This document shows, in pieces, positions 33,036-64,000 of a stretch of DNA of 64,000 bases. The DNA comes from Nemertoderma westbladi. Taxonomy: Eukaryota; Animalia; Xenacoelomorpha. The translations under genes and the position numbers were made by a program. Positions within the stretch are counted from its first letter, which is position 1. Each line of letters begins with the position of its first letter. The notes under the pieces are model-generated. The model saw nothing but the letters and a program-made list of their open reading frames with translations, was not told where the DNA came from and did not search any database. The stretch spans positions 854-64,853 of the forward strand of contig JAUCBJ010001428.1 in assembly GCA_032718475.1 (NCBI GenBank). The letters run 5' to 3'.

Positions 33036-34129
33036 TTAATAGGTACTTGAGGGGGGGGGGGGGGGGGGGGGCTGATATTTGCATGGTGCGGTTTCACTTA
33101 GTACTGTATATTATTAAACAAATACACGAGCTCACCAATCAAATCAATCAGAAGCATCACCCAGTCATCATTTCATGTCAAATTTCACGTGAATTTGTTC
33201 ATATTTGGAAAAGCCTTTGAAATTTGAAATTTCTTAATTAATTGCTTTCGGTAGAAAATGCATTTAAAGATTATGGCTTGGGTAATTTATTTAAGTCTTA
33301 CCATTGAAATGTTAGAATTCACACAACCCAGCTAAAAATTTTGATGCAAGGGTTTTGCGGGTTGGGGAATTCATTTGCGAAGTCAGTTTACTAATTTGAC
33401 GGCATTATGTCTGTCTGAACTTGTCCGTCTGTCTTATGTATGTCTGTCCATCAAAATATAAGCGACAGCTGAACAGACTATGTGGATGCCGTCAAACATA
33501 AAAACTGACATCGGAAATGAAATCAGCGACCACGAAATCCCCATAAGCAAGGATGAATGGTTTTGTTATATTTCGACAGACAAACCGTCATAAATACACT
33601 TAAATGTGGTATGCCAATAGCACTGTTAAGTTGTGTTCAGCCAAAGTGGGGAAGGCCAAATAGTGTCTCTCTAGCTGTGAGTGGCGGAATTGAATATTTC
33701 ACTAAAAACCCTACTAGTCCAAATCAAATTTGTTGAAACCAACTTTTTTTGGACTCCGCATCTTCAAATCTGCTAAAACTCTAGGCCTACTGTAAAAAAA
33801 AACTGTAGGCCTACTGCAGTATAAAATGATAATTGATTACAATTATTGCAAAATGTCATGGTCAATGGTTGGCTTGGTGCGCTGGCGCGCTTTTCGTTTA
33901 ACCATATCCCGTGTGGCGCGCTTTTTGTCAGTATTCCATATATATGGCATACATTTGGTTTTAAATCCCCGCTACACTAAATCACGCGCAAAAACATTTA
34001 TTTCACCTCTAAAAGCGCACGGTTTTATTATTTACGGGATGTAATAATTCACAAATTGATTAATTTCTCCTCCTATTTTAGGGGATGATGTAAATGGACA
34101 CATTTATGTGATTTTATCTTCCCCCTTGG

Positions 34130-34990
34130 GATTGGCTGATATAGGAGGGAATTTAAATAAACAATTATATTGTATTAAATCCGCCCGCTAATGATTGGCT
34201 GATTTAGGGGAGAGTTTAAATACACAATTATGCTGTAATAAATCCCCCGCTAATGATTGGTTGATTTAGGGGAGAGTTTAAATACACAATTATGCTGTAT
34301 TAAATCCCCCGCTAATGATTGGTTGATTTAGGGGAGAGTTTAAATACACAATTATGCTGTATTAAATCCGCCCGCTAATGATTGGCTGATTTAGGGGAGA
34401 GTTTAAATACACAATTATGCTGTATTAAATCCGCCCGCTAATGATTGGCTGATTTAGGGGAGAGTTTAAATACACAATTATGCTGTAATAAATCCCCCGC
34501 TAATGATTGGTTGATTTAGGGGAGAGTTTAAATACACAATTATGCTGTATTAAATCCCCCGCTAATGATTGGCTGATTTAGGGGAGAATTTAAATACACA
34601 GTTATGCTGTATTAAATCCCCCGCTAATGATTGGTTGATTTAGGGGAGAGTTTAAATACACAATTATGCTGTATTAAATCCCCCGCTAATGATTGGCTGA
34701 TTTAGGGGAGAATTTAAATACACAGTTATGCTGTATTAAATCCCCCGCTAATGATTGTCTGATTTAGGGGAGAGTTTAAATACACAATTATGCTGTATTA
34801 AATCCCCGCTAATGATTGGCTGATATAGGTGGGAGTTTAAATACACAATTATGCTGTAATAAATCCCCCGCTAATGATTGGCTGATATAGGTGGGAGTTT
34901 AAATACACAATTATGCTGTAATAAATCCCCCGCTAATGATTGGTTGATTTTGGGGAGAGTTTAAATAAACAATTATGCTGTATTAAATCC
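34130..34990. repeat. 61-62-bp tandem repeat (~14 units)
   Basis: AAATCCCCCGCTAATGATTGGCTGATTTAGGGGAGAGTTTAAATACACAATTATGCTGTATT. Confidence 0.97.
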
Positions 34991-41000: not shown

Positions 41001-41135
41001 AACCAATGACATTCTTGAGACGCATCTTAAAGGACACTGGCCTTGAAGATGCGGATGATCTAGCAAATGTCATGGGTGATAGGGAGTTGTGGCGGCGCAA
41101 TTTTGTCGACAAGCCGGCACAGCATTCTTAAAAAT
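38040..41135 (+). mobile_element. Decayed non-LTR retrotransposon (RTE-like; APE endonuclease plus RT), with stops and frameshifts
   Basis: EN motifs VGVQEHR, CYSPT, LGDFNA, SQIDHIL, SDHCLI; RT motifs QNGFRKGRGT, FVDFFKAFDSV, GVLQGDTLAPFLF, DFADDL, FCYLGS; C-terminal RLRFAGHCFR; split over at least four ORFs. Confidence 0.93.
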
Positions 41136-45412: not shown

Positions 45413-46623
45413 TGTACGCGCTTTTGGAGACCTTTAGCAGTTTAACCTGCCAAAATTTATATGTCTTTAGTTGGTAAATTAACTTTATAAGATGACAAGA
45501 TTTAATACAAAATAAACACAACATTAGCCGAAACCAGCCTAGTGCGCGTTCATTCACCCGCTGGATATTCCCGGGAGACTGGATTCGTATGCTTAGATTT
45601 ATTGCAGTGAAGCCTACTTGTATTATTCGATTGATCACTAGTATATAATCTCTGGCAAATATTATTCACTTTCGGGAAATATTAGCAGTTCCTTTCGGAC
45701 GTGGCGTTCTATCTATGTAAACAAAGTTATGACTTACACCAAACACAACGATATGGCTTAGATTTCACGTATGAGACGCATTCTTTAGGAGATGCTTAGT
45801 TATCAGTCTCAATCACAATCATACACACTACCGGTACCGCACAATACTGCTCACTGGTTTGCCGACAGTCACTGACTTTGATCACGTATAAAGAGAATAG
45901 CACTTGACTCAAGTAGTGGCTACCAAATAGCATTATATTCACTACAAACCACTATAATATAAGTCGCAATCGTTGTATGTAAACTGTCTCTCTAACCTGT
46001 AGTGTATCAAGAAAATTGGGAACTTTGGGTTCTTTATATGTGTTCTCCAAATAATATTCAACCAAACAACAGTAAATAGCAGTATACTGATATATTGAAC
46101 CGATAATGTAAGAACTGATTAGAAAATAAGGTATGAAATATAATAAGAACTGTGATATGCACTGATAACAGTCATACGCTCTATAATCTAAGACTACTAA
46201 TGTTTCTTATAAAGTTATAAAAATACGTGATTCCAGAGCCGTTCTTCCTGGCTTAGAATCCTCAACAACACACTCGTGACTACTCCCTATACAAGGGTAC
46301 CAGCTACCCTTATTCCACGAAGCTCTCACCCACCACAGAGAATGAGCATACAGATAGGAAATTCAGTTCAGTAGATCTGTGATAGGTCAAAATCAAAACC
46401 AACTCAAACCCTATTGGCAGATACAGAAAGCAGGGCTATGGGGCAACCTTCCCAAGCTGGTTGGACGATCAAACATAGCCCAGATCCCTTCGCACAGCAA
46501 ATCAGCCAATCAGCCGGTAGCTTGCACTATTCGAGTTATAGATCCCTTTTGAGAGTATTCTAGCGCCAGGGGGGAACTGGTTAGCAAGGCGAACGAATCA
46601 GTTATCCCACAAAAGCTTTTACA
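45413..46623 (-). repeat. 3' LTR of BEL/Pao element (~1211 bp)
   Basis: TGTA...TACA termini; about 6 differences by eye from 62821-64000 over 1180 bp; right end inferred from the adjacent PPT. Confidence 0.92.
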
Positions 46624-46631
46624 CCGCTCCC
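46624..46631 (-). other. Polypurine tract of BEL/Pao element
   Basis: Minus strand GGGAGCGG immediately before TGTAAAAG. Confidence 0.65.
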
Positions 46632-46701
46632 AGAAAATGGGATTTAAGTCTATAAAATATACAAAATCACAGTTTCTAATATACATAAATACTCTAAACA
46701 G

Positions 46702-49700
46702 TTAGTCTTTCTTGCGCGGACGGCGTTTACGCAGTTTTTTAAAGCTAGCCAGAGTCTTTTTCTCTTTGGGGCGAGCCACTTTACAAGGAGGGCTATAACT
46801 CCTGGGTGAAGGGTGCAATATAATTGCATCAGAAGGTGCAGGATTGTGGTCGGTGTATCCGCCGGTTGAAGTGCCTGGTAGGTTGACATCAACTTCGGGG
46901 GACTGGGGTCTAACGGCTTTTAGAGCGCGTTTTAAGACGGCTGCTCTTACGGGTCCCTTACGCGTGGTCTGAACGAGAGCCGTGGGTGGACCATAGGCCG
47001 TTAGAAATTGCCTTGGTTTAATGGTTCTTTCCAACTCGCGTTCGCGGGCTCGATATTCGTAAGGCCGTCGATATACCTCTTGTAACTCAGGGTGTGAGTT
47101 AACGAATATTTCTCCATAATCAGGGTCGTGACGGATAAAATTAATTAAGTGATAGGAATGAATATCACTGGGATTAACCTGTCTGAGGAATTTGCGCACA
47201 AACTTAGTCGAAATGCATTCTCCGACGCGCTTCAGTAGCTCGTAACTCGGTATGCGTGCTTTCTGTTCGACAGAAGCGAATAGGTAAGGATGGAACGCAT
47301 AAACTCCTTCGTAAGCGCGTCCAGGGTAATAGCGGTGGCGTGAGTTACAATGCAAATCAGCGTTCGCTTCCCAAGCTCTAATATAACGGAGTGTAATCAA
47401 TTCATCTACACTTTCTAAATCTTTATTAAATGGACAATCAAAGCTGGCGTGTCCTTTTAGTTGACAATGGTGGCATTGCGTCATAAATTGAGGACAGACT
47501 GCAAAAATGTGCGAACTATTGAGTCGACAATAGGCACAGTAAATTTCCATCGACGGTTGTTCGCGGAAATAAGAACATGGGGCGTTCGTGTCCATGGGCG
47601 TAATATGGTCTCTAGATGCGCATAACCGACAACGCTGTCGATCAACATAGTTGGCATGACGATAATCGTACGCAGTGAGACACTGTGGACCTTGATACCA
47701 TTCTAGTATATAGTCGTTGTCGCTGTTCCGAGGCGTGGTAGGTTGAATCTCCTCGGATTCTAGACATATTGGTTCGTCTTCCCATTGCATAGCTGAGGTG
47801 GGCGTAACCGTCTCTTCCGGTGGACCTACTGTTTGCATTTCCACGACAGAGTAACCTGTGGTGATTCTAGGTCTTTGAATAACAGAAGAATGCAGATTCG
47901 ATATACAAATATCCTTAAAAATGGCAAATCCAGCACTATCTAACTTCTCAGCGGCGGAGTGTCTGAGGCTGAGTTTGGTCAACGCGCGGTCTTTAAATTG
48001 ACTATCCATGTTACGAAACGGTGTTAGGAATCGTCGGAAACATTCAAAGCGGATGAATTTATTATGTTCATCTAGCTTAGCGAGTTTGGTCCCAAGTACT
48101 AATGGATGGGCGCGTATAGTACGGCTGCACACATCGGCTAGCCAACCGGAAAGTGCGGTGTTTTCAAAGATCGTGTAGATAGCTAAGGAGGGACGTAGTG
48201 GGACACTCATGAAGCTATACACGGCGCCAGGTGCGGTCAATGGTCCGTCAAAGTATAATCGTGAATAATGGTCTCCATATATTTGTTGATAGTTTATGGG
48301 ATTTCCAACCTTGAAATTCCATCCGTATTCCTGAAAGGCCAGATGTCCGATGGAAGTTCGTTGAACTTTGGTAATGTCGCTAGACGTATTAGCATACATG
48401 GTGCGGAAGAAACCTCGGCCTTCTGCCCAGGGAGCAATTAACTGTGTATCCACGAAAGGATATGGTATATCCTCCATATTCCGAAAATCGTTTTGGAGAT
48501 CTCCATAAACAGCGGAACCGAGTTTAAGGATTCTTTCGTTGAACAACATCTCGAGGACGGGCTGTGGTAACATCGATCCATCAATACCCATGGCCGGTTT
48601 GCGTTCGGTGTCGATGACGTAACGCTGCGCAAGTGCGAATTGACCATGTCGGAGATTCTTTTGTGTTTCGGTGAGAGTTTCAAAAGAATAATCAATCACG
48701 TCGGAACACGCTCGAGTAAACACGTGAGTAGAACCGGCTAATCCGCGTATGTGGATCATGCGCGTAGTTCCTAATTCTCCGACCGGAACGCTGCCTTCAT
48801 TGTCGTAGGTGACGACTCCATACATCTCAATGATATTAAGAGTTTCATTCCACTCTTTCGTAGCGTTCTCGAGGGTCATCCCTACTGGATGCCACAAGGT
48901 GGCGCATTGGTTAGCGTCAGGGAGATCTCTATACCTCAGGGATTGCGTGTTACACGTCTCAATATTTCCCTGTCTTTGTATTCTTTCCTCCTCGAATAAT
49001 ACGTCGAGATTCCAATGGACTAATCGAGTTTTAATGAATCCATCGAGGTTATAGGGAGGTGTAGCATCATTCTCAATTCTAGAGATATTATATGGTTTTC
49101 TAAATGAGTTTACCTTTACTAACTGATCCAAATGTTTCTGTAATTGCTCGAGTTCGACAATGTCTAGAGGATTTATTAGCGGTAGAAACTTTAAGTTATG
49201 CGTCGGATCTTCCGGTTTTATCAGATAATATTGAGTCAGATTAACGTAATAAGGGTGGTCTTTAATCCCATAAAACGAGTTCGTTAAAGGTCTAGCGCGT
49301 ATGTTGACATCGTGTACCATACGACGGACAAGATCCGCTCGATCGTCCGGAGGTTCAACGAGTATACCGTCAACACGAGCAGCTTCGATTGGCGGACGCT
49401 GTAACATGGGGGCGTCGGCGATAAGATCACGTGATCTTATACTAATATCAACCGGCTGGGGTTGTGCCGTCGCGAAGAGTTTGTCTCCGAAATGGGGAAT
49501 CATCGAGGGGTGACGGATGGTTTTAGAGTAGAGATCCGTCATAAGGATTTGGGCTTCGGGTTGGGCTAAAGCGGCTTCTTCCCTCTCGTCCATTTCCGTA
49601 TGCTTCTTTTCGAGTTGATTCTCCTCCACTTGTTGTTGTAGACGCTCGTCCAAAAACTCCTGTAGGGAATACGTGCGTCCAAGCTCGATATCTTCCTCTA

Positions 49701-50955
49701 GATTTTGGATTTCTCGATCAAACTGTGGTAAGGCTAACTCTTTCACTGCTTGGACTTGTTGCTGTAATTTACGTTTCTCTAAGCAATCCTGTGTTCCCTT
49801 CCCGATTTTCTGTCGAATAGCGTCTAAAGCATTTCTTATAACGCTCTCCTCGACTTCCGTGGCAGGTTGTATAGGGGTTAATCCTGGCCGATTGTAAGGA
49901 TTAAATGGCGATGTTAGATGCCCGCGTCCCAATCCGGCTAAATAGGATGGTCGAATATCTAACGAACCCACTGCTGGAGCACCACCAATTAACTGCTCGG
50001 GTAACACCAAATCTTTGAACAAAGAATATAGTTCGGGAGGATCAGTGATACTGTTAGGATCAAGAGTTTGAGGTCTCACCGGGGAATGAGGAGGCCTGAC
50101 CGAGTATTCCGGAACTCTGATCATGGGTTTATTTAGTGACCGTTTGAGGCGAGCGATCGTGGGTGATACATCGAACAGGTTTCGCTCGAAACTCCCGTAC
50201 GTATAACGCGTAAAACTGTGTTTAGCGCAACGTCTCCGCGGATGTTTATGTCTTTCCGTTTGTTGGTTGGGTCTAGGGCATTCGTCACAATAATACCAAA
50301 GACGTACGTCCTGTAGGGGAAACGCGGGTGATCGTTCTCCAGTTTTACAATATTCCTCCATTTGTTCGAAGCTATCGGGAACAACGGGTAGTGGACGATC
50401 GGCGGTGAGATACATCATAGTGAAATAGAGTCTTTTGAGCTCTACTATAGGGTCATGATGTATACCTTGAGGATATCGAGTCTCTAGGTTCTGTTGACTG
50501 GCAATATTGAGATAGGTTTCTCTCAAAAATTCTAGGTAATCGTTGAAGTCGATACGTTTATCTGGTTCCTCAACGTTTTCTCTTTCAAGTCGGTTACGAA
50601 TAGAGTTCTCGTGGTCTATTCTCGGTTTATCGTTACGACTCCGCTGGGTATGATACTTAAATAAAACCATTTCCCTTTCGGTGTCTACATCGTCAGTATC
50701 ATGTAAGTCGGTAGGGTGGCCGGTAGTTAGGAAGTCCATATACGTACCATTACGATGTGTATAGCGCGCCGTGAATTTTCTATAGTCCAATTCACGCGTG
50801 AGTTGCTCTTGAGACATCGGCGGTTCGATATAACGACCATCGTCTTCCGTAGTAGTGGGATCGGGTTCACCACTTATCAAGCTATCCACAAACGCTTGTA
50901 AAGGTAGAGTATATCGCTCCCTGATACCAAGATCATCTTCTATCAGCTCCGTCAT
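46702..50955 (-). CDS. Accessory ORF2 (1417 aa): DEDDy-type 3'-5' exonuclease-like domain plus three CCHC zinc knuckles and basic C-terminus
   Basis: VVTYDNEG (ExoI), LPQPVLEMLFNERILKLGSAVYGDL (ExoII), FVDTQ, SIGHLA, PLRPSLAIYTIFE (ExoIII-like); CRLC..H..C, CAYC..H..C, CHHCQLKGHASFDC; KKLRKRRPRKK; no signal peptide or TM segment. Confidence 0.85.
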   Translation of the reverse strand: MTELIEDDLGIRERYTLPLQAFVDSLISGEPDPTTTEDDGRYIEPPMSQEQLTRELDYRKFTARYTHRNGTYMDFLTTGHPTDLHDTDDVDTEREMVLFKYHTQRSRNDKPRIDHENSIRNRLERENVEEPDKRIDFNDYLEFLRETYLNIASQQNLETRYPQGIHHDPIVELKRLYFTMMYLTADRPLPVVPDSFEQMEEYCKTGERSPAFPLQDVRLWYYCDECPRPNQQTERHKHPRRRCAKHSFTRYTYGSFERNLFDVSPTIARLKRSLNKPMIRVPEYSVRPPHSPVRPQTLDPNSITDPPELYSLFKDLVLPEQLIGGAPAVGSLDIRPSYLAGLGRGHLTSPFNPYNRPGLTPIQPATEVEESVIRNALDAIRQKIGKGTQDCLEKRKLQQQVQAVKELALPQFDREIQNLEEDIELGRTYSLQEFLDERLQQQVEENQLEKKHTEMDEREEAALAQPEAQILMTDLYSKTIRHPSMIPHFGDKLFATAQPQPVDISIRSRDLIADAPMLQRPPIEAARVDGILVEPPDDRADLVRRMVHDVNIRARPLTNSFYGIKDHPYYVNLTQYYLIKPEDPTHNLKFLPLINPLDIVELEQLQKHLDQLVKVNSFRKPYNISRIENDATPPYNLDGFIKTRLVHWNLDVLFEEERIQRQGNIETCNTQSLRYRDLPDANQCATLWHPVGMTLENATKEWNETLNIIEMYGVVTYDNEGSVPVGELGTTRMIHIRGLAGSTHVFTRACSDVIDYSFETLTETQKNLRHGQFALAQRYVIDTERKPAMGIDGSMLPQPVLEMLFNERILKLGSAVYGDLQNDFRNMEDIPYPFVDTQLIAPWAEGRGFFRTMYANTSSDITKVQRTSIGHLAFQEYGWNFKVGNPINYQQIYGDHYSRLYFDGPLTAPGAVYSFMSVPLRPSLAIYTIFENTALSGWLADVCSRTIRAHPLVLGTKLAKLDEHNKFIRFECFRRFLTPFRNMDSQFKDRALTKLSLRHSAAEKLDSAGFAIFKDICISNLHSSVIQRPRITTGYSVVEMQTVGPPEETVTPTSAMQWEDEPICLESEEIQPTTPRNSDNDYILEWYQGPQCLTAYDYRHANYVDRQRCRLCASRDHITPMDTNAPCSYFREQPSMEIYCAYCRLNSSHIFAVCPQFMTQCHHCQLKGHASFDCPFNKDLESVDELITLRYIRAWEANADLHCNSRHRYYPGRAYEGVYAFHPYLFASVEQKARIPSYELLKRVGECISTKFVRKFLRQVNPSDIHSYHLINFIRHDPDYGEIFVNSHPELQEVYRRPYEYRARERELERTIKPRQFLTAYGPPTALVQTTRKGPVRAAVLKRALKAVRPQSPEVDVNLPGTSTGGYTDHNPAPSDAIILHPSPRSYSPPCKVARPKEKKTLASFKKLRKRRPRKKD

Positions 50956-51178
50956 ATCTGCTATTGGAGTTTATTAATGTTACAACGAGTTTATATTGTA
51001 TATTTTAGGCGAGCGGGCGTCGCTGCCTAACACTCTCGGCCCCCCGGACAGTGGGATCCTCAGCGCCGATGTACCGTTGTCGCAGTGTTTACGCCAACGT
51101 TGTAGCAACAGCACGACAACGATAACCGGCACAAGTCACTCCACTGTCCGTCCCAAAGGCTTGGATCCACTTGAGGTT

Positions 51179-51186
51179 CTTATATA
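51179..51186 (-). promoter_or_regulatory. Candidate TATA box of an internal promoter for ORF2
   Basis: Minus strand TATATAAG ~225 nt upstream of the ORF2 ATG, inside the 1.46-kb spacer after pol. Confidence 0.35.
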
Positions 51187-52420
51187 GGAGAGTTAGGTTT
51201 ACTTTACGATTGCGACTAGCTACTGTAAACACACTTTAGTAGCAACATTCACCTACAAACGCACAAATTCCACACAAATGTCACCAATTATAAGCATACA
51301 GGCCATTTGTCCGTTAGTCAGTGCCTTCCAGAATGTCACGTTGTTATTGCGTATCCTTGGATACTAAACAGTGCTACGTAATCTCTATACTAGGCAATGG
51401 GGCAAGCTTTCTATTGTTCCTTTAACTCGTTTCTAATTCTAGCGTGGGTGTTGCCATGGTGACATTATGGAAAGCTAGCGGTAGAATTAGGGTAATTCTC
51501 ATGCATACAGATCTGGGATGCTATTTAATAGTAATTCTTTAATTGTCAATATCCTCTCTATGCATGATTTTATTAATTTTATCGGCTATTGACTATATGT
51601 TGGAGATTTTCACACTCTAACACACTCAAGGGGATGAATCTCCGCTCCCATGATCTATTAATTAATGGAATTTTGGGAATGTTGTAAATTGCATAAAATG
51701 ACAATTTATTAAATTCATTTAAAGATATGAATTCAAATTTATTCCCGTGAATTTTATTATTTGATGGTAAAATTGACATAATTTTATTCCAGAGCTTATC
51801 TGGGGACGTTAACCACTGATTCTAGAATTTGTCTTTCAAGTATATCGGTGGGTGCCGCGATATCTTAATCGACTAGAATTACAGATGGTCAAAGGTGTAA
51901 CAGATTTATTTGCGATTTACGCTACTGTTAGAGGGACATCACGCTACTATATGTATTATTTAATATAAGGTAGAAGAGCAATATCGCACGAAGCAATGTC
52001 AGTGTGAAGAGGCAAGTCGTTTCCAAGGTCTACCCAGAGCTTGGTTTAGCCGAGACACGAGGATCTGAACTTTGCATTCCTAATACTCTGCCTACCAATA
52101 ATACTTAAATATAGTAGTGGCTTTATTGTACTTTAATAAGTACGGACATTTCATCTTACTGTAGTCACGTATTTATAATATGATACGGACAGTAAGGAAA
52201 GAGAAAAAATTATTTCTCGCCGTCGCACTAAATATATATTATAAGTAATTACGTACGTAATAAACACTAATATATTGCACTAATCTACTAAATAATACTA
52301 AAATAACATTCTACTAAATAAAATTAAATAAAACGATTATAATAAAGTACATAATAATATTTACATATAAAATGTAATAAAATAGATAAATAATATAGAC
52401 ATACACCCACTCCAGACGTA

Positions 52421-55400
52421 CTACGTTGAGGAGCCCCTAGATGTTTGAGGGATTAGGGAGGTGGTCGTGGGAAGAGTTTCTTGCTTTCCATAGTTTCCGG
52501 AGAGTTCCCGGTCTCTTTCCAGCAAACATAAACGACCAACTGGGCGATTGAGTTGTTGCGTCTCAAAGATTATGCCGGGTTTCTTGAAGTTACGTCGCAT
52601 GACGACGAGTTCTACTGAGCGCACTAAACCATCCTCCGAGATGTGCGTCTCAATGATACGACCTGTCTGCCACCGTCTGCGTGGAAGGTCCGGATCTACA
52701 ATAAGCACCATGTCTCCGGCGCTGACATTTTCCTGCTGCGCAAACCACTTAGTTCGAAGTTGTAGCGTGGGCAGATAATGTTTCTCAAAATGGTCAGCGA
52801 AACGACGGGATAGCAACTGCATAAGCTGCCAAGTTCGACGGCAGTATTCATCTCCGTCGGCAATCTCGGATTGTGGGAGCATGGCTACAGGTTTCTTAAG
52901 TAGGAAGTGAGCGGGGGTTAGCGCTTCCAGGGAATCGGGACTCGATGAGACTGGCATAAGCGGTCTCTCGTTAAGATAGGCAGCGATTTCCTCCATTAAC
53001 GTCCGCAGAAGTTCGTCAGTGAGATATGCGCGGCACGGCACTATAAAGTGAAATGCGGTTTTGACACTTCGAATTAATCTCTCCCAACTTCCTCCCCACC
53101 AAGGGGCGTCGGCGGCGTTAAAAGTCCAGCTAGACGCTGTTATCCGTAGCTGGTCGTCCACCTGTCTTTGATTCCAGTCCTTTACGTAAGCCTGAATTTC
53201 GTTGTTGGCACCAATGAAGTTCGTTCCCTTGTCCGATCGCATGGTATGACTAGTTCCGAAGCGAGCGATCTGTCGTCGTAAACTTAAGACGAAGCTGTTA
53301 GTAGATAGATCGTTCACCATATCAAGATGGATGGCTCTACAAGTCATACATACGAAGATGACACACCATCTCTTGACTATAGTCCTAGCGCGATATACTT
53401 CAATAGGGCCAAATAAATCTACACCAGTATTAGTGAAGGGTGGTTCATAAAAGCTTACTCGTTCCCTAGGTAATTCTGCCTCTCGCTGTGTTAAAGGCCT
53501 ACTGAATGCTTTCCTACAGGGTATGCAGTTCCTAAGAACTTGGTTCAGAGCTCTACGTGGTTTATAGAAATAATAGCGAGTTCGAATTTCGCTAAGAACT
53601 CGTTCTCTACCAGCATGATAAAGTTTACTGTGAACATCTACAATCATCTTGATTTGTACTTCAAGATTCCTAATGAGTATGGGGAATTTAGTGTCAAAAG
53701 ATAATGGCGCATTAGTTAGCCTTCCTCCAACACGTATTAACCCATCTATCATTGTGCTAGAGAAGCGATCCCTTAAGCGCATCTGTGGATTTCTTAACAA
53801 CAGGAAATACTTGTCGGAATCCTCGTAGCATTGCAGGAGTCGCAGTATCTGTTTATTGGCTTCTTCATGCTCCTGGTAACTGATCTTTTCTTTTAGAAAC
53901 CGATCGGGTATTTTATATTTAGGTAAATCTTTAATAGCATGAACTTGGACCGATGTTAATGGAGCAGTATCATTAGTGGTCGTCTTCGTCTTGGAATAAC
54001 GATGATGAAAACATCGCTTTAAATATGCGACGGCCTTACAGAGCCGATTCCAGGAACTGTAATGATGTATTGCTCGCTGCAGCAGGGGTGAGATTCCTTG
54101 CGAGACGTCTGGTATTCCAGATTTCCAATCTCTATCCTTAATTTCCACAACAGACTTGTTTGTGACGAGGGATTGTGGATCCGCAGCATCATTTCCGGAA
54201 GCATGTAATACAGATAGATCGATTGTCGGTTTAAATAACTTCGATTTGCTCGCTCGGGTTTTAGGTTTGACCTTTTCCGCTCCCTTGGCTTGTCTGATCT
54301 CTGCCGTAGTAAGGTGAGGAGGCCATTCATCTTCTTCCTTGCTCAGGAAGTCGGGTCCACTCAACCAGTCTGGAGTATCTATCAGTTCCTGTGGAGTGGC
54401 TCCTCTGGAGGCGATGTCAGCTGGATTAATCGTACCAGGGCAGTGTCTCCATTGATCTATTGTTGTTCGACTAAGGATAATGGCCACTCTGTTGGTAACA
54501 AAGACGCTGAACTGACAGACTTCATTGGTTATATACTCCAATACGAGCAAAGCGTCGGTCCAATAAACCGTTTTCTCCAGTGGATAATCGATCTGTTCCG
54601 TGACATTCCGTCCGATGGCTGTAGCGTAGAGAGCCGCTTTTAACTCCACTCGAGGAACCTTCAACTTGTTGTTAATCAATGCCTTAGAGGTGACCAAGGC
54701 GACTTTGATTCCATCCGGGGTTTCGACTCGAAGGTATGCTACTATTCCTATTCCCATATCGCTAGCGTCTCCAAACACATGGAGTTGATAGGAATATGTA
54801 GGGAGAACATGACCAAAATATGAACGGGGAATTATAAAATTCTCGATGGCAGGTAGGGAATCTTCCCATTTCATCCATTTCTTTAACAGTTCTCCCGTAA
54901 GTGGATCGTCCCATGAGTGGTTTTCAAGCCACATTTGTTGTACTAAACTCCGAGCAATCAATATGACTGGGCTAATAAATCCCAATGGATCGAAATAAGT
55001 GCTCAGGATACTTAGACAAATCCGTTTGGTCCGAACTGGATTCTCTCGCTGTTTTAGCTGAAAAAACAGGATATCTCTCTCCGTGTCCCACTTCAAGCCA
55101 AGCGTCTTGGTTTCTGGAAGATCATCTTTTATTAGGTCGAGGTCTTTTGTTCCTCGGTCTTCTACTGGTATCGCTTCCAGAAACTCACGGGAGTTACTGG
55201 TGAATTTCGTCAGTCGAAATCCACCTCTTTTCAAACACTCTACCGTTCCTTTCGCGACATCAATGGCTTCTTTTACCGATGGAAGGGACTTTAAATTGTC
55301 GTCCATGTATATGTCCTTTTTGATGTTGTCAATTACCTCTTTTGAGAAGGCGTCTCGGTTGTCATCCGCAGTGGTCCGTACCACGGAGCAAGCGTTTGAA

Positions 55401-58400
55401 GGACTGGATATGATCCCAAAAGCCTGGATGGTCATCCAGTACTCCACTGGTTTCTGTTTGAGGTCGCCTTCAGGCCACCATAGAAACCTTAGACTGTCTC
55501 TATCTCTATCTAACGCCTTGACCTGTAAGAACATGCCTTCTATATCGGAAGCAAACGCGATGGAATATTGTCTTAATCTGAGAAGTATTCCCAACAAGGA
55601 TTGTAGCAAGTTGGGTCCTGGTAACAACTCGGAATTGAGAGATTGACCCATATATAGAGCGGAGCCATCGAATACAACTCGTACTTCATGTGGTTTACCG
55701 GGTTTGGGAACGTAATGATGCGTTAGATAGTACGTTCTCTCTGTTATGGGTGTTTCTTCCGGTACTCGTTCCGCATAACCTTTGCTGATAAATTTCTTCA
55801 ACTGCGTTTGGTACATTTCTTTAGCTGAAGCATTTGCTGTAAGGCGTCGATGTAATTGAGCGATTCTTTTCTCTGCCAATGGTCGGTTGTTTATAAATCT
55901 AGGTTCTCGTTTTCGAAAGGGTAGACCGATTTCATATCTCCCTTGTTCTTTTAGAAAACGTGTAGTTGTCTCCTGGATTTGCTTGGCTCTTTCCTCTTCT
56001 ATTGATAGAGCCTTATCGTACGAATTGGGTTCTACCAACTCTTGTGTAAAGAATCGTACGGCGAGTTCGTCCCGGGTTCTAGCGTTGTAACGCTCTATTT
56101 CGTCATTGAGTTCATCATTGTAGTCAATGGGTCCCGACGGGCGAATCAGTTGACACAAAGTTCGCTGATCATTCCACAATTTATTTTCGGTTAGTAGGTC
56201 GATTGTGTTCTCTTCCTCGAAGAGTTGATATATGTCGTCATTATCTGAGGAGTATGGTGTTCCCTCAGTGGGTTCGTCCACTTCACTGCTCTCCTCTTCC
56301 CAATCCTTTACTTGAAGTAGCCGGTCTTGTGGCAATCTTTCTTCAAGAGTTCTGCGGGAAGGGCCAGTAAAGTACCAACCTACTCTAGTTCTTACCGCAT
56401 AAGTTTGTAATGGCTGCGGTTGAGCAGGCCGTTTCTCCAATGTCTCGAGCGCCTCATGCGCGTTTTGGCCGATGAGGATTTGCACTCCAGGATAATCTGT
56501 CTGGAATCGAGGTATCTTAAGATGTTGGATGCTCTCATCCTCGTCCCAATTATAAAGGTCTGCTTGGGTAGTAGCGAAGTTCTTTATAGCCACCATTTTT
56601 ACTGACCTTATACTTTGTTCTCCTAATTTATCCTGTGGGGTGGACAACGCACCTACATAGTAATCTGCCGTTATGGTAGATTTCCAAACCTGCATAATTC
56701 CGGACATATTCAACTTAGTTCGGAATTTGGGTTGTCCAGCAAAGATATCCTCGGCTAATTCTTTGTCGATGAATGTTCCGGTGCTTCCGGAGTCAAGGAG
56801 GGCGTTCACTATGTAACTTTTGTTAGGACCGTGAACTCTTACCTGTACTACCGGAAATTCTCGTATTCCTACGTTGGAGGTTGGAGCTTTCCAAGATGGT
56901 TGTCTGTCAAAGGTGGTTAGGGGGAACTCCGTGTCGGTGTCCTTTTCATATGTAAGTGCTCTATACACTGTGGTATTTATTAGATAACAGGATTCGTTGG
57001 CATCGGAGAATTCGTCCGTATAGAATCCTTCCCACTCAGAACCTTGGTCAGTGTCGTTCACATCACTGAATTGGACATGTAGTTCTGGCTCACTCACCTG
57101 ACTCGGGTGGTTTCGTTCGAATTCACTGTGTAACAAGACGTGATGTTTCGCACCGCACTTTGCACACTTTATGTCAGAGTAACAGTTTCGCCGTTGGTGT
57201 CCTGGTCTGAGGCAATTATAACACAACCGCTTATCCCACACTACTTCTCGTCTGGCTACTAGGAATTTCTTAAAGAATTCAGTACACGCACTCAAACGGT
57301 GGGGCCCGTCGCACAGCACACAGTTTGGCTTGATGTTGCTCACTTTACCTTGGGTAATGTTATGTACTTTCGCTCGTTCTTCGGGCTTTCTTACCTGAAT
57401 TCGGTTGGGAGACTGAGGAGGGGTCTTGGTAGCCTTGTCTCTCCTATCATTTGTTCGCGGCTTGTATTTACTTACATCTCTAGGGGTCTTGTTAACATAG
57501 TAAGAGTGGTCAGTGTCTTTCCCGCTGTCCTCTTCTTGAGACGCTTGGCTTTCGCCGTCGTCAGTATAACATACTGGGTTTACCCTTCTCCTAGTAACTG
57601 GTTTCTCACTTACCTTATTTTCCGATGTTTTTTCTCTGGACTGTTTTATGAGTTGTAGTTTGACCTCACCGTCTAGGAATAACATGAGATCAGCCATGGT
57701 AGGGCTCCGTCGTTGTTGCTCCATCATATACAACACTTTCTTGTCCCAGCGAGTACATACTCCACCCTTTGGTAAAGTTGAGACTATGGCTCCAATAACC
57801 ATAGAACTCTGATATTCATGAGACTTACCTAACCAATCCAATTGTCGGCAGATCTCTTGAATCTCATCGGAAAATTCTATAATCTCGTTACTAAGGAACT
57901 TTCGGGGAGCTACTAATTTTGCATACAAATACTTAGCTATGTTATCCTTATTACCATACCTGGTGTTTAATGTATCCCAAACTTGTCTTAATCCATTTGG
58001 ATGTCCAATAAACTTCAACGCCATTAACTTGGGAGGTCCTTCCAAACATTTGATGAGGAATCTCAGTTTCTCTCCGCTAGATAGTACAGAGTTCTGTATG
58101 CTATCTTCATAATATTCATTAAACGGTAACCATTTCATTTCATCTCCATTGAATTTGACGATTTCTCCCACTTTGACCGCTTGGCGGGCTTCTGTTCTAG
58201 CCATCTGACGCATAAAGCTTTCTTGGGCCATCGTGTTATTTAATATCGAATTATCGGTATATAAATTTCTCGGATTATTATCAGGTCTATAGGGAATATC
58301 ATTACAAACAGGTTTATAATCACCCTTAATAGGGTTTGCTATAGGAGTTTCTACTTCGCTAGCAGTATAGATGCGTGTAGGCTCCACACCTTGCGCATGA

Positions 58401-60601
58401 AATACTTCAGGCCTAACAGGTTGACACATTGTTACAGGGGGTGTTGGTATGCCCCTTTTTACATTTACTAATTTATCGCGTTCTAGCGCGATACTTTGCT
58501 GCACTTCTTGTAGCTCTAACCTACTTTCCCTGACAGTTCCCTTGAACTGGTGGACCGTCTCCCGCATCTGTCCGAGCAGGACATTCATCCCTTTCCGTCC
58601 CTCCTCCACCCACTCGACCGCCGAAGCGGGAGTCGCCAACGTTGTGGCGGGCGGGCGAGGGACTACGGGCGACCAATCCATACGCTCGGAGTCCATGACA
58701 GGAACCATTTCAGGGGCTGTTCTACTAGGCACTGATAGTTTCGTGCTGTGTAAAGGGAATTTAGAGGTTGCTCCCTGGAATACAGGTGTCTCTAGCACCG
58801 AAGTGGTGGCTTCGAGAACAGGCCTAATTATTTCAGGTTCATCTGTTATAGTAGGGAGTCTACTTACAGTAACAATCCGGTCTGTGTGTTCTGTACTCGC
58901 TACGGCTGTGCTAGCTAGTTGTCTTCTAACAGCTGGAGGTAAATCAGGCAATTTCTGACGGGGAGACGTTCTTTTACGCCTACTTAGACGAGATCTATTT
59001 CCTCCACCTTCAGGGTCGGTGGTATCTCCTTCATCAGAGGAGGTAAATCCCTGTCGTTTGGAAGTAGATCGACTCATCATCTGCATTCGACTATCCGTTA
59101 ACCGTTTATTTATACTATCTTGACTTTCCTGAATATTTTCCAACGCTAGCTGGGCGATCTCGTCAGACGCTCTCCTTTCTGCTTCTGCCAATGCCTCCGC
59201 CGCTTTTCTTTCTGCCTCTGCCACTGCAGTCTTTCTTTCTGCCTCTGCCGCCTTTCTTGCTGCTTCTGCCTCTGCCTCTGCTGCCTTTCTTTCTGCCTCT
59301 GCCACTGCAGTCTTTCTTTCTGCCTCTGCCGCCTTTCTTTCGGCTTCTGCCTCCTTTCTTTCTGCTTCTGCCTCCGCTGCCCTTTTTGCCGCTTCCACTG
59401 CCGCTGCCGCTTTTGCCGCTGCTTCTGCCTTTCGGTCCTCTATCTGTTTTTTCTTGACTTGTTCTTCCTGGGCTCTAGCGATGCGGAGTTGTTCATCAAA
59501 TTTAGCTTGGTTTGCAGCTAACATTTCCGTATCAATTGCGTCCAACACATGCTTGGTTCCTTCACTATTAGGGGAAAGTCCAGCCAGCCTTCTTCTCAAC
59601 TCCTCGTCTCCTAGGAATCTCTGATAGTCTGACAGATAGATATCAATGTCGTCTCTCGGTCGCGGTCCCTCTGCTGTCACTTCACTTTCCACTTGAGAAA
59701 AGGTGGCATCGGTTGATTCTTCGTAGGTTGGTCGCTCAGCCAACCGGGATTTCCACTGGGCTGTTTCTTGAACTTTGAGTCCTACCCGCTGGAACCAAGT
59801 CTTGACAGCAACTTGCAGAGACGTGTCCTGCCTTCTTTTGGAAGTTTCCTCAAAGGCCGATAGGATCAGTCTAATACGTAGAGTTCTTTCACGTACTTGA
59901 TAAAGCAGCTCTTCCTGCTCTTGAGGTCGTTTTGGTTGTCGAAACAGTTGTTCTTCTAGTCTCTCTAAAGAGCCGAAGAATCCCTGCACATATCCTGCTG
60001 CCGACCTCTTCCAAACAGCTGGATCCATAGTATCTTTAGTCACTCCCATCCGGTATATGTCTTCCCAAGTAGCTTCTGACAAATCTAACGGGAATCCGAG
60101 TCCGGGAAAATTCCATTGTGACTCGACAATAGACATCAATTCTTCCCTTGCGTAGCCCGCATAACTATCCTGGGTCGATCGCTTATTTCTCGCCCAATCG
60201 CCTTGGTGTTCCTCCACCGCAATCAAGATCGTAGTTAGTACCGCGGCTGGAAGAGTAAGAAGGGGATCCGAGTAAGCTGTACCCACCATCTTCACTCCGC
60301 GTTCGGGGGTCAGCTCTACAGTATCCGAACCACTGGAGCTATCGGGTCTCTGGGGAGTAGGTTCTTGACCAAGATGTTGCTGCGATAGAACAGCTGCCTC
60401 TTGGTTCCGTTTGACCTGGGCCCGAGTGCCTATGATAGACCTATGGTGGATTAGCCTAGGGTCTGATACTACGGGAGGGATGACCTTTCTTTTAGTAGGA
60501 GGTGAACTAAACTCTTCTCTTAATCGTTCCACACTCCTATCTTTGTCACAGATGGTGACATCGAGTAGACTATCCGACAGGTTTTGTTGTGTGTCAGACA
60601 T
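52421..60601 (-). CDS. gag-pol: BEL/Pao Gag-Pol polyprotein (2726 aa) with long N-terminal extension
   Basis: FNGD..KW..F Gag motif; triple knuckle CVLC..H..C, CYNC..GH..C, CAKC..HH.LLH; LLDSGS (PR); YLTHH, RVVFDGS, DIEGMFLQV, YMDD (RT); FGDAS, PRVEL, WTD, NPADIASRG (RH); H..H..CIPC, GVDLFGP, SDKGTNF, WERLI (IN). Confidence 0.98.
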   Translation of the reverse strand: MSDTQQNLSDSLLDVTICDKDRSVERLREEFSSPPTKRKVIPPVVSDPRLIHHRSIIGTRAQVKRNQEAAVLSQQHLGQEPTPQRPDSSSGSDTVELTPERGVKMVGTAYSDPLLTLPAAVLTTILIAVEEHQGDWARNKRSTQDSYAGYAREELMSIVESQWNFPGLGFPLDLSEATWEDIYRMGVTKDTMDPAVWKRSAAGYVQGFFGSLERLEEQLFRQPKRPQEQEELLYQVRERTLRIRLILSAFEETSKRRQDTSLQVAVKTWFQRVGLKVQETAQWKSRLAERPTYEESTDATFSQVESEVTAEGPRPRDDIDIYLSDYQRFLGDEELRRRLAGLSPNSEGTKHVLDAIDTEMLAANQAKFDEQLRIARAQEEQVKKKQIEDRKAEAAAKAAAAVEAAKRAAEAEAERKEAEAERKAAEAERKTAVAEAERKAAEAEAEAARKAAEAERKTAVAEAERKAAEALAEAERRASDEIAQLALENIQESQDSINKRLTDSRMQMMSRSTSKRQGFTSSDEGDTTDPEGGGNRSRLSRRKRTSPRQKLPDLPPAVRRQLASTAVASTEHTDRIVTVSRLPTITDEPEIIRPVLEATTSVLETPVFQGATSKFPLHSTKLSVPSRTAPEMVPVMDSERMDWSPVVPRPPATTLATPASAVEWVEEGRKGMNVLLGQMRETVHQFKGTVRESRLELQEVQQSIALERDKLVNVKRGIPTPPVTMCQPVRPEVFHAQGVEPTRIYTASEVETPIANPIKGDYKPVCNDIPYRPDNNPRNLYTDNSILNNTMAQESFMRQMARTEARQAVKVGEIVKFNGDEMKWLPFNEYYEDSIQNSVLSSGEKLRFLIKCLEGPPKLMALKFIGHPNGLRQVWDTLNTRYGNKDNIAKYLYAKLVAPRKFLSNEIIEFSDEIQEICRQLDWLGKSHEYQSSMVIGAIVSTLPKGGVCTRWDKKVLYMMEQQRRSPTMADLMLFLDGEVKLQLIKQSREKTSENKVSEKPVTRRRVNPVCYTDDGESQASQEEDSGKDTDHSYYVNKTPRDVSKYKPRTNDRRDKATKTPPQSPNRIQVRKPEERAKVHNITQGKVSNIKPNCVLCDGPHRLSACTEFFKKFLVARREVVWDKRLCYNCLRPGHQRRNCYSDIKCAKCGAKHHVLLHSEFERNHPSQVSEPELHVQFSDVNDTDQGSEWEGFYTDEFSDANESCYLINTTVYRALTYEKDTDTEFPLTTFDRQPSWKAPTSNVGIREFPVVQVRVHGPNKSYIVNALLDSGSTGTFIDKELAEDIFAGQPKFRTKLNMSGIMQVWKSTITADYYVGALSTPQDKLGEQSIRSVKMVAIKNFATTQADLYNWDEDESIQHLKIPRFQTDYPGVQILIGQNAHEALETLEKRPAQPQPLQTYAVRTRVGWYFTGPSRRTLEERLPQDRLLQVKDWEEESSEVDEPTEGTPYSSDNDDIYQLFEEENTIDLLTENKLWNDQRTLCQLIRPSGPIDYNDELNDEIERYNARTRDELAVRFFTQELVEPNSYDKALSIEEERAKQIQETTTRFLKEQGRYEIGLPFRKREPRFINNRPLAEKRIAQLHRRLTANASAKEMYQTQLKKFISKGYAERVPEETPITERTYYLTHHYVPKPGKPHEVRVVFDGSALYMGQSLNSELLPGPNLLQSLLGILLRLRQYSIAFASDIEGMFLQVKALDRDRDSLRFLWWPEGDLKQKPVEYWMTIQAFGIISSPSNACSVVRTTADDNRDAFSKEVIDNIKKDIYMDDNLKSLPSVKEAIDVAKGTVECLKRGGFRLTKFTSNSREFLEAIPVEDRGTKDLDLIKDDLPETKTLGLKWDTERDILFFQLKQRENPVRTKRICLSILSTYFDPLGFISPVILIARSLVQQMWLENHSWDDPLTGELLKKWMKWEDSLPAIENFIIPRSYFGHVLPTYSYQLHVFGDASDMGIGIVAYLRVETPDGIKVALVTSKALINNKLKVPRVELKAALYATAIGRNVTEQIDYPLEKTVYWTDALLVLEYITNEVCQFSVFVTNRVAIILSRTTIDQWRHCPGTINPADIASRGATPQELIDTPDWLSGPDFLSKEEDEWPPHLTTAEIRQAKGAEKVKPKTRASKSKLFKPTIDLSVLHASGNDAADPQSLVTNKSVVEIKDRDWKSGIPDVSQGISPLLQRAIHHYSSWNRLCKAVAYLKRCFHHRYSKTKTTTNDTAPLTSVQVHAIKDLPKYKIPDRFLKEKISYQEHEEANKQILRLLQCYEDSDKYFLLLRNPQMRLRDRFSSTMIDGLIRVGGRLTNAPLSFDTKFPILIRNLEVQIKMIVDVHSKLYHAGRERVLSEIRTRYYFYKPRRALNQVLRNCIPCRKAFSRPLTQREAELPRERVSFYEPPFTNTGVDLFGPIEVYRARTIVKRWCVIFVCMTCRAIHLDMVNDLSTNSFVLSLRRQIARFGTSHTMRSDKGTNFIGANNEIQAYVKDWNQRQVDDQLRITASSWTFNAADAPWWGGSWERLIRSVKTAFHFIVPCRAYLTDELLRTLMEEIAAYLNERPLMPVSSSPDSLEALTPAHFLLKKPVAMLPQSEIADGDEYCRRTWQLMQLLSRRFADHFEKHYLPTLQLRTKWFAQQENVSAGDMVLIVDPDLPRRRWQTGRIIETHISEDGLVRSVELVVMRRNFKKPGIIFETQQLNRPVGRLCLLERDRELSGNYGKQETLPTTTSLIPQTSRGSST
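59170..59432 (-). repeat. Coding repeat AEAERKA(A) (coiled coil) in the Gag N-terminal extension
   Basis: TTTCTTTCTGCCTCTGCC-type units in frame. Confidence 0.85.
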
Positions 60602-61884
60602 ATTTAGTTATACAGTTGAATGCCTACTGCTATAGTTACAGTTAAAGCAAGTCCAGTAATTCAGTAGGACTGCTGGCCTAGTACCGGTAATTAATTACAA
60701 TATATTAGGATACCGGTATACACTTATAATATATATAAGTATTGTAAACTAGTTTTGTCACAGAGTACCGGTATATAAATTTAGCACAAATATATAAATA
60801 TATAATAGGCCTATCGTGAATACCGGTATACAGTTTACACTGATAGTATATATAAGTATAATTATGGACTAGAATTAATTACAGAGTACCGGTATGATTT
60901 CCGCTCAAATTTATAGAAATAAATATAATAAGCCTATCGTAAATACCGGTATGTCAATTATTTTAGAATAATTGAATTTCTGAATATTTTAGGGTTACTT
61001 GGTTACTTTAACTTACTTTGTTACCGTTATTTAAGCAGTAGTCCAACTGATATTGAGACCTAGTTGTTGTATGACAGACCTACTAGTTTATAAATCTTTT
61101 AAGTTGATTTATAATATATATATATATACCCTGATAAGGGGTTTTGTTACAATACTGAAATAGATGTTACTATTTCTGGGAAATAATCACTACACAGAAG
61201 CTGTGCGCTCTCAGTGAAGTGCTACTTATTAGACACTAAAACGAATAATTCTACTGGCCTACGTTACTTATCTATTAATTACTTACAATATTGTTGAGAT
61301 TACAATCTCTAATAAACTCACGAAAAGACTATACGTACGAAATTTTTAGGGCAATTTAACAGGGAAACTACAAACCAGTCTAACAAAGGGTTAGAACTTC
61401 TGGTTATTACAACGGATAGGATACTACAGTATTTGAAAATAATAAGCAGAAGTAAATATACTGCGTTGTCCAGATAGGAAAATACCACCGCCTGACGACC
61501 TACAGCCGTATCGCTATAGGTACTACGTTATGTATCACGGAGTGTTCCTACCTAGAGGTTAATAGAACAAACGTGCCTATGAACCACTTTACAACACAAA
61601 TATAATGCCTACACTAATTACTTTCGGAAAGCACTGTACACTAAACCCTAAGTTAGGTACAAGTACTTGTAAAACAAATAACCTGCAGTTAAATATACTT
61701 GAACAGTTAAAAGAACCACAGCATCTGCTGGAGTGACCGGGGCACAAAGTCACCAGTCTTTACCTACGCCAAGCAGCCCGTGTAGTACCGGGGTTAATTT
61801 AACTATAACGGTATGTATAACAAACACAATTACTGTAGGAATAAACTTGGGGACATGAATGTTGCGAGTAATCGCATAAACTCT

Positions 61885-62450
61885 GAATAATAAATATTAC
61901 GCTACCCGTACAGAATACTCAAATAAAATACAAACTAAAATGCTGGCGGACTACTATCAAGCCTAAACAAACTACAGTATGTGCAGATTCTGAAATTGTT
62001 AGTTAGTATGCGTGCTAATACGGTAGTACGACTTATTCTTTAAGAGGGGGTTGACCTTACAACTACGAGTTGCCCCAACTTACTAACTGGCACTTTATCA
62101 GACTTACTCTACACACGCAGCAATTCCTTCAGACCCAACAACAGCCAGACAACAATCCAGCCTACAAAATATCTGAATAATATTACGGTACCTGAACAGA
62201 CTATACAAACAATACAGGATAAACGCTGACGGACTACTATCAAGCCTAAATAAACCACAGTATATGCAGATTCTGAAATTGTTAGTTAGTATGCGTGCTA
62301 ATACAGTAGTACGACTTATTCTTTAAGAGGGGGTTGACCTTACAACTACGAGTTGCCCCAACTTACTAACTGGCACTCTATCAGACCTACTCTACACACG
62401 CTGTAATCTTCAAGCCTAACAACAGTCAGACAACAGTCCAGCCTACAATG
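61885..62450. repeat. 283-bp tandem duplication in the BEL 5' leader
   Basis: CGGACTACTATCAAGCCTAAA...TAAGAGGGGGTTGACC... occurs twice at offset 283 (62041 and 62324). Confidence 0.92.
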
Positions 62451-62809
62451 ATCTGAACAATCTGAGCAGACTTACACGTCTTCAGCTCAATATTAACTTA
62501 CTAGGAAATAAAACCGACAGAAATAAGTAGAATCTCAATAAAAAATCAGGGCTGCAGTCCCTGATTAAGTACTAAGGCCTACCGGTATACAATAATCAAA
62601 ATCGAATAATACTAATGTACTTATACAGCAGTACTGGTTATGACAGTTGGGCCTACTGACCTACAGAAGTACCGGTTCTGACAGTTGGACCTACGGACCT
62701 ACAGCAGTGCCGGTTCTGGCAGTTGGGCCTACTGACCTACGGAAGTACCGGTTCAGGTTTACCGATCGACCGGTGCTTAGCAACCTTATTGCTTACTGCA
62801 ATAAGATCA

Positions 62810-62820
62810 ATGACTGTTAT
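62810..62820 (-). other. 11-nt PBS ATAACAGTCAT complementary to the element's own LTR (63574-63584)
   Basis: + strand ATGACTGTTAT abuts the LTR; its reverse complement ATAACAGTCAT is at 63574-63584 and 46165-46175. Confidence 0.8.
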
Positions 62821-64000
62821 TGTACGCGCTTTTGGAGACCTTTAGCAGTTTAACCTGCCAAAATTTATATGTCTTTAGTTGGTAAATTAACTTTATAAGA
62901 TGACAAGATTTAATACAAAATAAACACAACATTAGCCGAAACCAGCCTAGTGCGCGTTCATTCACCCGCTGGATATTCCCGGGAGACTGGATTCGTATGC
63001 TTAGATTTATTGCAGTGAAGCCTACTTGTATTATTCGATTGATCACTAGTATATAATCTCTGGCAAATATTATTCACTTTCGGGAAATATTAGCAGTTCC
63101 TTTCGGACGTGGCGTTCTATCTATGTAAACAAAGTTATGACTTACACCAAACACAACGATATGGCTTAGATTTCACGTATGAGACGCATTCTTTAGGAGA
63201 TGCTTAGTTATCAGTCTCAATCACAATCATACACACTACCGGTACCACACAATACTGCTCACTGGTTTGCCGACAGTCACTGACTTTGATCACGTATAAA
63301 GAGAATAGCGCTTGACTCAAGTAGTGGCTACCAAATAGCATTATATTCACTACAAACCACTATAATATAAGTCGCAATCGTTGTATGTAAACTGTCTCTC
63401 TAACCTGTAGTGTATCAAGAAAATTGGGAACTTTGGGTTCTTTATATGTGTTCTCCAAATAATATTCAACCAAACAACAGTAAAATAGCAGTATAATGAT
63501 ATATTGAACCGATAATGTAAGAACTGATTAGAAAATAAGGTATGAAATATGATAAGAACTGTGATATGCACTGATAACAGTCATACGCTCTATAATCTAA
63601 GACTACTAATGTTTCTTATAAAGTTATAAAAATACGTGATTCCAGAGCCGTTCTTCCTGGCTTAGAATCCTCAACAACACACTCGTGACTACTCCCTATA
63701 CAAGGGTACCAGCTACCCTTATTCCACGAAGCTCTCACCCACCACAGAGAATGAGCATACAGATAGGAAATTCAGTTCAGTAGATCTGTGATAGGTCAAA
63801 ATCAAAACCAACTCAAATCCTATTGGCAGATACAGAAAGCAGGGCTATGGGGCAACCTTCCCAAGCTGGTTGGACGATCAAACATAGCCCAGATCCCTTC
63901 GCACAGCAAATCAGCCAATCAGCCGGTAGCTTGCACTATTCGAGTTATAGATCCCTTTTGAGAGTATTCTAGCGCCAGGGGGGAACTGGTTAGCAAGGCG
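62821..64000 (-). repeat. 5' LTR of BEL/Pao element (truncated by window end)
   Basis: Near-identical to 45413-46591; minus-strand TATAAGAA at ~63613-63620 and AATAAA at 63006-63011. Confidence 0.97.

Follow-up and report, generated by a model that had tools for sequence, protein, structure and literature searches.

A BEL/Pao Retrotransposon of Nemertoderma westbladi with a Candidate Self-Priming Site Complementary to Its Own LTR

Organization of the Locus

The window analyzed here, the whole 64,000-nt stretch of Nemertoderma westbladi DNA, contains on its minus strand a BEL/Pao element that spans positions 45413–64000, at least 18.6 kb within the window, and that would measure about 23 kb in total if its LTR is 5.6 kb long (Table 1). 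In the Gag part of its gag-pol protein (P0002), DUF1759 is identified by Pfam (PF03564, E = 1e-12), and a motif scan locates three Cys-His knuckles at residues 1096, 1129, and 1148; the Pol part matches PF05380 (E = 1e-36), PF17921, and PF18701. Protease, RT (YMDD), RNase H, and integrase motifs are intact and follow one another in the order PR-RT-RH-IN. The acidic motifs of RNase H are present in the motif scan.

The families found in the element proteins are all of BEL/Pao type, and no chromodomain was detected in them at E = 0.001 (Pfam). PF05380 occurs in 120 of the 120 database matches listed for gag-pol, and the closest database relatives among the matches listed share 34%–42% identity in Pol. 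In a 60-row Pol tree, made by a quick method from rows without named BEL/Pao superfamily references, the window element forms a long branch, with RT-RNase H identity to its relatives of 45% or less. By its proteins the element is thus BEL/Pao-type, and it is filed as a variant rather than a typical member because its primer binding site (PBS) is not of the tRNA type. Membership of the Tf1/sushi group was considered and ruled out, a Ty3/gypsy chromovirus Pol with a chromodomain being absent. A pattern-based screen of viral contigs gave 73 matches, none of which was a relative.

Table 1. Positions of the element's features within the window
Feature	Position	Strand	Remarks
3' LTR	45413..51032	-	CA end at 45413 observed; start at 51032 (5,620 nt) probable
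ORF2	46702..50955	-	1,417 aa; lead for a DEDDy-like 3'-5' exonuclease region; zinc knuckles at the C terminus
Polypurine tract, candidate	51033..51045	-	TGT follows at 51032
Second TATA-like box, TATATAAGAA	51177..51186	-	upstream of ORF2; putative function
gag-pol ORF	52421..60601	-	single intact frame, 2,726 aa: DUF1759, knuckles, protease, RT, RNase H, integrase, DUF5641
Leader stretch after PBS	62790..62809	-	pairs with 63022-63003 or forms local 11-bp hairpin (62808-62782)
PBS, 11 nt, non-tRNA type	62810..62820	-	flush with terminal CA of 5' LTR
5' LTR, visible part	62821..64000	-	runs past window end
LTR partner of leader	63003..63022	-	covers AATAAA poly(A)-like signal, 63012-63007
Candidate self-primer	63574..63584	-	exact 11-nt complement of PBS within 5' LTR
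TATA-like box of LTR	63613..63622	-	36-38 nt upstream of candidate primer; putative function

The 2.2-kb leader of the element carries a 290-nt duplication (87%; 62461–61882, minus strand) and a 55-nt repeat (91%; 62754–62624, minus strand). Elsewhere in the window, tandem arrays occupy 1–13600, 18245–21172, and 34077–34990; they comprise at least 208 copies spaced 39 nt apart, in which either strand has long open frames, and others with periods of about 36 and 62 nt. An uninterrupted 644-aa ORF on the plus strand (29484–31418) has a signal-like N terminus and a C-terminal thioredoxin domain, and no homologue of it was found at E = 1e-20. Two overlapping plus-strand frames with RVT_1 matches (39158–41009) are probably a broken non-LTR retroelement.

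LTRs and Element Boundaries

Comparison of the visible 5' LTR (62821–64000) with 46591–45413 revealed 99.5% identity (1,180 aligned columns, of which 6 differ); the element is apparently young. Both copies terminate in CA (at 62821 and 45413), and the similarity stops after this dinucleotide. The sequence-only reading had assumed a 1.2-kb LTR; this figure must be corrected, as it describes only the portion within the window, the 5' LTR passing position 64000. The full length is probably 5,620 nt, with the LTR starting at 51032 and ORF2 lying in U3, because the sole family-type polypurine tract (PPT) in the window is located upstream of ORF2. The PPT motif of the relatives, which was seen in 21 of 45 relative clusters, has a single match in the window when both strands are considered (51043). 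Alternative starts of the 3' LTR lie near 46700 and 52400.

A second purine-rich stretch (52413–52399, minus strand), followed by TGT, is present directly after the gag-pol stop, and an AT-rich region with several AATAAA motifs lies downstream of it; it is possibly an older PPT and LTR start. Near the second TATA-like box, a 9-nt stretch (51149–51141, minus strand) starts 35 nt below the TATAAG of the box (51186), an offset similar to the one that separates the LTR primer from its own box, and the complement of this stretch (51054–51046) directly precedes the PPT. The R-U5 region has a consensus splice donor, GTAAGT, at 63145 (minus strand), 133 nt above AATAAA, and a CAG acceptor-like site is found at 50958 (minus strand), two bases before the ORF2 ATG.

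ORF2

No Pfam family was assigned to ORF2 at E = 0.001, and no homologues were found among proteins of near length. A language-model atlas relates it to 3'-5' exonuclease clusters (scores 0.90–0.93), which can serve as a lead only. A phmmer search returned four weak matches, two of which (P0125 and P0127) have the same layout of an exonuclease-like region and zinc knuckles; the other two (P0124 and P0126) look like low-complexity noise and were set aside. A three-row ORF2 profile matches the knuckles of retroviral nucleocapsids (E = 4e-4). In sequence searches of the PDB, the exonuclease part alone retrieved nothing and the three-row profile only EXD2, at E = 1.2; two single-sequence folds were uninformative (pLDDT 31 and 32). 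As a lead, the middle region of ORF2 may be a 3'-5' exonuclease. A DEDDy exonuclease, ORF3, is described in the LTR elements Juno and Vesta of bdelloid rotifers (PMC5408684, in excerpt), which, like the window element, are LTR retrotransposons whose additional 3' ORF shows DEDDy-like motifs. They differ from it in that here the element is BEL/Pao and the exonuclease-like region is fused to zinc knuckles in a protein of 1,417 aa, encoded probably inside U3.

The Primer Binding Site and Its Complement in the LTR

The sequence-only reading placed directly after the 5' LTR a PBS without TGG, and proposed that an exact 11-nt complement of it within the LTR serves as primer. The letters in question are borne out by our analysis. 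The PBS reads ATAACAGTCAT (62820–62810, minus strand). Beyond the LTR no TGG is met before 62440, which leaves 380 nt without one. The complement of the PBS, ATGACTGTTAT, is found once per LTR (63584–63574 and 46175–46165); the pairing is exactly 11 nt, sharp at both ends, and G:U pairs add nothing to it. The complement lies, as had been claimed, below a TATA-like box and above the AATAAA of the LTR: TATAAGAA starts at 63620, 36 nt upstream of the primer, TTTATAAG starts at 63622, and AATAAA starts at 63012. An initiator-like motif, TCAGT, starts at 63574 and overlaps the last base of the candidate primer. The canonical distance from a TATA box to the transcription start is about 30 nt, which the 36–38 nt observed here would slightly exceed if transcription began exactly at 63584; the usual spacing would put the start 5–8 nt above this position. 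A primer spanning a splice junction was also considered for the window element and rejected: with any GT-AG intron the best match is 10 nt, one less than the contiguous match, and uses a weak donor that lies within the primer itself, and with GT[AG]AG donors none was found.

The estimate that such a match would arise by chance with a probability of about 1e-3 or less holds for the LTR length on which it was based. For a 1,288-nt LTR the expected number of chance matches is 0.0002–0.0011 (order 0–2 models), and 13 of 16,110 internal 11-mers (PBS included) have an LTR match of this kind; at the probable LTR length of 5,620 nt the expectation rises to 0.002, and a match exists for 23 of the 11,776 other 11-mers of the internal region. 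We considered that the complementarity might be a chance match, or a one-off accident of reverse transcription in a single copy. The analysis does rest on one copy, and very many elements have been screened, so that an event of probability 0.001–0.002 will arise somewhere. The nearby TATA-like box, the intact ORFs, the LTR identity of 99.5%, and the second duplex described below all argue against an accident, as does the recurrence of an own-LTR signature in 11 of 16 relatives, and we regard this explanation as very unlikely.

A further candidate primer is a host small RNA, in particular a fragment of an Asn-like tRNA ending in the anticodon loop, with the LTR match being a remnant or fortuitous. 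On visual inspection, the spacing of the primer and its flanks around GTT resembles that of the anticodon and T arm in a tRNA, and some copia lineages are primed by half-tRNAs (PMC6317226, in excerpt). The would-be tRNA stems, however, do not pair on inspection; ARAGORN reports 0 tRNAs in the window, and Rfam gives no tRNA match in 60600–64000 or in 63480–63660. Moreover, priming by a host RNA predicts neither an exact complement in the element's own LTR nor the family-specific letters seen in the relatives. A host primer thus appears quite improbable.

Predicted Folding of the RNA around the PBS

In predicted folds of RNAs extending to 62700 from 63584 (885 nt) or 63591 (892 nt), the PBS duplex is part of the minimum free energy structure with all 11 pairs, at pair probabilities of 0.66–1.0. 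When the RNA begins at 63600, the minimum free energy structure no longer contains the duplex (probability 0.61–0.77), and with the same start and a candidate intron removed its probability falls to about 0.1.

Tf1 requires, besides the central duplex, two further duplexes in which PBS-adjacent sequence pairs with LTR sequence (bioRxiv 10.1101/2022.12.06.519325, in excerpt). The central PBS duplex of the window element was reached in 0 of 300 shuffles. The 20-nt duplex between the leader and the LTR has an energy of -19.1 kcal/mol, reached in 0 of 300 dinucleotide shuffles, a test that is post hoc because the pairing was first spotted by eye; its longest exact match, 10 nt, was reached in 11 of 1,000 shuffles. 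By analogy, this pairing may be regarded as resembling the second duplex of the Tf1 pretzel. A U5-end duplex, the third of the pretzel, is not beyond chance in the window element (114 of 300 shuffles), and among the relatives the lowest shuffle counts for it are 3 and 8 of 100. The leader duplex is significant in 0 of the 16 relatives, the best value being 19 of 100 shuffles.

The leader-LTR duplex competes with a local leader hairpin (-11.3 kcal/mol) and covers AATAAA, and for these reasons the region looks like a switch. Because the leader exists only beside the 5' LTR, its pairing could, in the folding model, hide the poly(A) signal of that copy alone. The same features suit an alternative in which the PBS pairing is conserved as an RNA structure, acting in poly(A) masking, packaging, or a dimer switch, while the real primer is another one, for example an element RNA that is spliced or trimmed and acts in trans, or binds at an unrecognised site; the lack of significance of the third pretzel duplex also fits this alternative. 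A purely structural role would, however, leave the placement of the 11-mer unaccounted for, which is exactly where the 3' end of a primer is expected, 0 nt from the CA (0–4 nt in the relatives); no TGG site lies within 380 nt. Nor would it explain why the relatives match a splice junction over a fixed short length. We judge this alternative unlikely.

Distant BEL Relatives

The sequence-only reading had suggested looking for covariation of PBS and LTR in related BEL families. Relatives were taken from one metagenome scan, from which the best 80 of 618 confirmed loci were grouped into 53 clusters. The LTR end was fixed by comparison of the 5' and 3' copies in 16 clusters and set by eye in 4 more; the other 33 of the 53 are contigs without an LTR end or a full LTR and were left out. 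A match was defined as a complement of the PBS with a spacer of 0–4 nt, either contiguous or across a GT[AG]AG..YAG intron of 50–600 nt.

By this rule, 11 of the 16 testable families (from the best 80 of 618 loci) have an own-LTR complement of the PBS of 10–15 nt. The longest pairing runs across a splice junction in 10 of the 11, and is contiguous in L059. In the cross-family control, which excludes sister pairs as grouped by eye, 1 of 444 pairs reaches 10 nt; in a looser control, with any GT-AG intron and sisters kept, 20 of 272 pairs do so. Three of the four families with the LTR end set by eye also match their own LTR. The letters of PBS and LTR both differ between families, including within the clade of L031, L045, and L060.

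The five families missed by the strict test are L013 and L070, which have TGG-type sites, L016, L062/L024, and L073. L062/L024 (14 nt) and L073 (10 nt) match only through non-consensus donors, and L016 has a change at the junction in each LTR copy. L034, which was added by eye, also has a TGG-type site. In L062 (82–100), with L024, the PBS begins with TGG and pairs over 14 nt with the splice junction of its own LTR (GTAGGC donor); TGG-starting sites of this kind could be mislabelled as tRNA sites.

An own-LTR match is common, and its letters are family-specific. The families compared are distant (RT-RNase H identity of 45% or less), and several are mutual sisters; the comparison is not a covariation test for the window element's own family, of which no sister was found among the relatives examined. 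On the tree, the splice-type label requires three changes, a value equalled in 37 of 500 shuffles, and we therefore make no claim on the origins of splice-type priming.

In the L045 record, which may be RNA or DNA, comparison of 1–214 with 6935–7265 reveals that what is missing at the 5' end and kept in the 3' LTR is exactly the 117-nt LTR intron across whose junction the PBS complement runs. The spliced form reaches 79 nt above the paired stretch, an argument that the primer need not consist of the first RNA bases; in the relatives the paired stretch mostly spans a splice junction and may lie elsewhere in the RNA. For an intron spliced from the 5' end to survive in the LTR, either copying would have to end below the intron or the primer would have to act in trans, and a cut at the 3' end of the primer would allow such persistence.

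A Model for Self-Priming

We consider it likely that a piece of the element's own RNA serves as the primer for minus-strand DNA synthesis. For the stricter form of this proposal, in which the RNA would contribute its very first 11 bases as primer, the sequence leaves the chances about even. Transcription would start at or a few bases above 63584, and bases 63584–63574 would pair with the PBS, looping out 753 nt of R-U5. The leader after the PBS would pair with 63022–63003, both bracing the duplex in the manner of the Tf1 pretzel and masking the poly(A) signal of the 5' LTR. By analogy with Tf1, cleavage after 63574 by the RNase H of the element would give a 3'-OH flush with the CA of the LTR, and RT would copy from 62821 to 63573 and then jump to the 3' R. 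Copying of the primer during plus-strand synthesis would rewrite the PBS in every cycle, and it is this rewriting that would keep the PBS complementary to the LTR. The earlier proposal of self-priming in BEL/Pao has thus gained the second duplex (0 of 300 shuffles) and the own-LTR match (11 of 16 families versus 1 of 444 control pairs); the trait is not peculiar to one lineage. The window primer is contiguous, with a 0-nt spacer, whereas the primers of the relatives mostly span a splice and have spacers of 0–4 nt.

Comparison with Known Systems

Self-priming is proven for Tf1 (PMC7175516, in excerpt), which primes with the first 11 bases of its own RNA after RNase H cleavage (same excerpt); the cleavage step of the model above follows Tf1 (also PMC5341516, in excerpt). 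Tf1/sushi elements are described as self-primed, and the same is predicted of Tcn1 and of the copia TAR lineage (PMC6317226, PMC2864245, and PMC6934838, in excerpts). The window element shares with Tf1/Tf2 of Schizosaccharomyces pombe, Tf1/sushi, and Tcn1 an 11-nt PBS matching its own LTR and a PBS-adjacent leader whose LTR partner lies downstream of the primer. It differs from Tf1/sushi in its BEL/Pao proteins, in the 753-nt looped R-U5, and in that only two of the three pretzel duplexes are supported; its start site and primer cleavage are predicted ones. The Tf1 PBS begins with ATAAC (PMC11042837, in excerpt), and the window PBS begins with the same five letters, a post hoc observation that may reflect chance or a common cleavage preference. 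In the plant Ty1/copia TAR lineage (Houba, Osr-1), self-priming is likewise predicted from PBS-LTR complementarity (PMC6317226, in excerpt), in another superfamily and another host kingdom.

The description of BEL/Pao elements as generally tRNA-primed agrees with the ICTV profile of the Belpaoviridae (PMC8742986), which gives host tRNA priming as characteristic and calls replication poorly understood. For the Belpaoviridae (Semotivirus) this profile lists an 18-nt tRNA-Arg/Gly PBS, LTRs of 0.2–1.2 kb, and genomes of 4.2–10 kb (PMC8742986). The window element conforms in its DUF1759 Gag, three knuckles, single PR-RT-RH-IN ORF, DUF5641, CA end, and probable family-type PPT; it departs from the profile in having no tRNA-type PBS, a length of at least 18.6 kb (the size range of the profile being descriptive), and an exonuclease-like extra ORF. 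No report of self-priming or splice-junction priming in BEL/Pao was found in a literature search of titles and abstract openings. Term look-up found neither the PBS nor tRNAs discussed in PMC3118150 and PMC554778, excerpts of PMC3601003, PMC8220671, and PMC13524379 contain nothing on BEL/Pao self-priming, and the PBS and primer letters had 0 matches in seven supplementary files of PMC13524379. From the sequence, the best reading would be a known self-priming mechanism that is new in a superfamily described as tRNA-primed.

A broader proposal, possible but doubtful in our view, is that a large part of BEL/Pao is self-primed in two forms, one using a splice junction created when an LTR intron is removed, as in most of the relatives sampled, and the other contiguous and Tf1-like, as in this element and L059. 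The lineage of the window element would then have converged on the full Tf1 design, with a single RNA switch linking the formation of the primer to the masking of the poly(A) signal, and the ORF2 exonuclease/zinc-knuckle protein encoded in the 5.6-kb LTR would trim or protect the primer end.

The self-priming model predicts that transcription begins near 63584, that the RNA is cut after 63574, and that strong-stop DNA carries an 11-nt RNA derived from the element. If it is correct, self-priming would reach a third LTR superfamily, and the missing PBS calls for many such elements in tRNA-based annotation would be explained. Such elements would also escape control by tRNA fragments. The splice-junction form in the relatives would tie priming to host splicing and may explain how an intron persists in the LTR.
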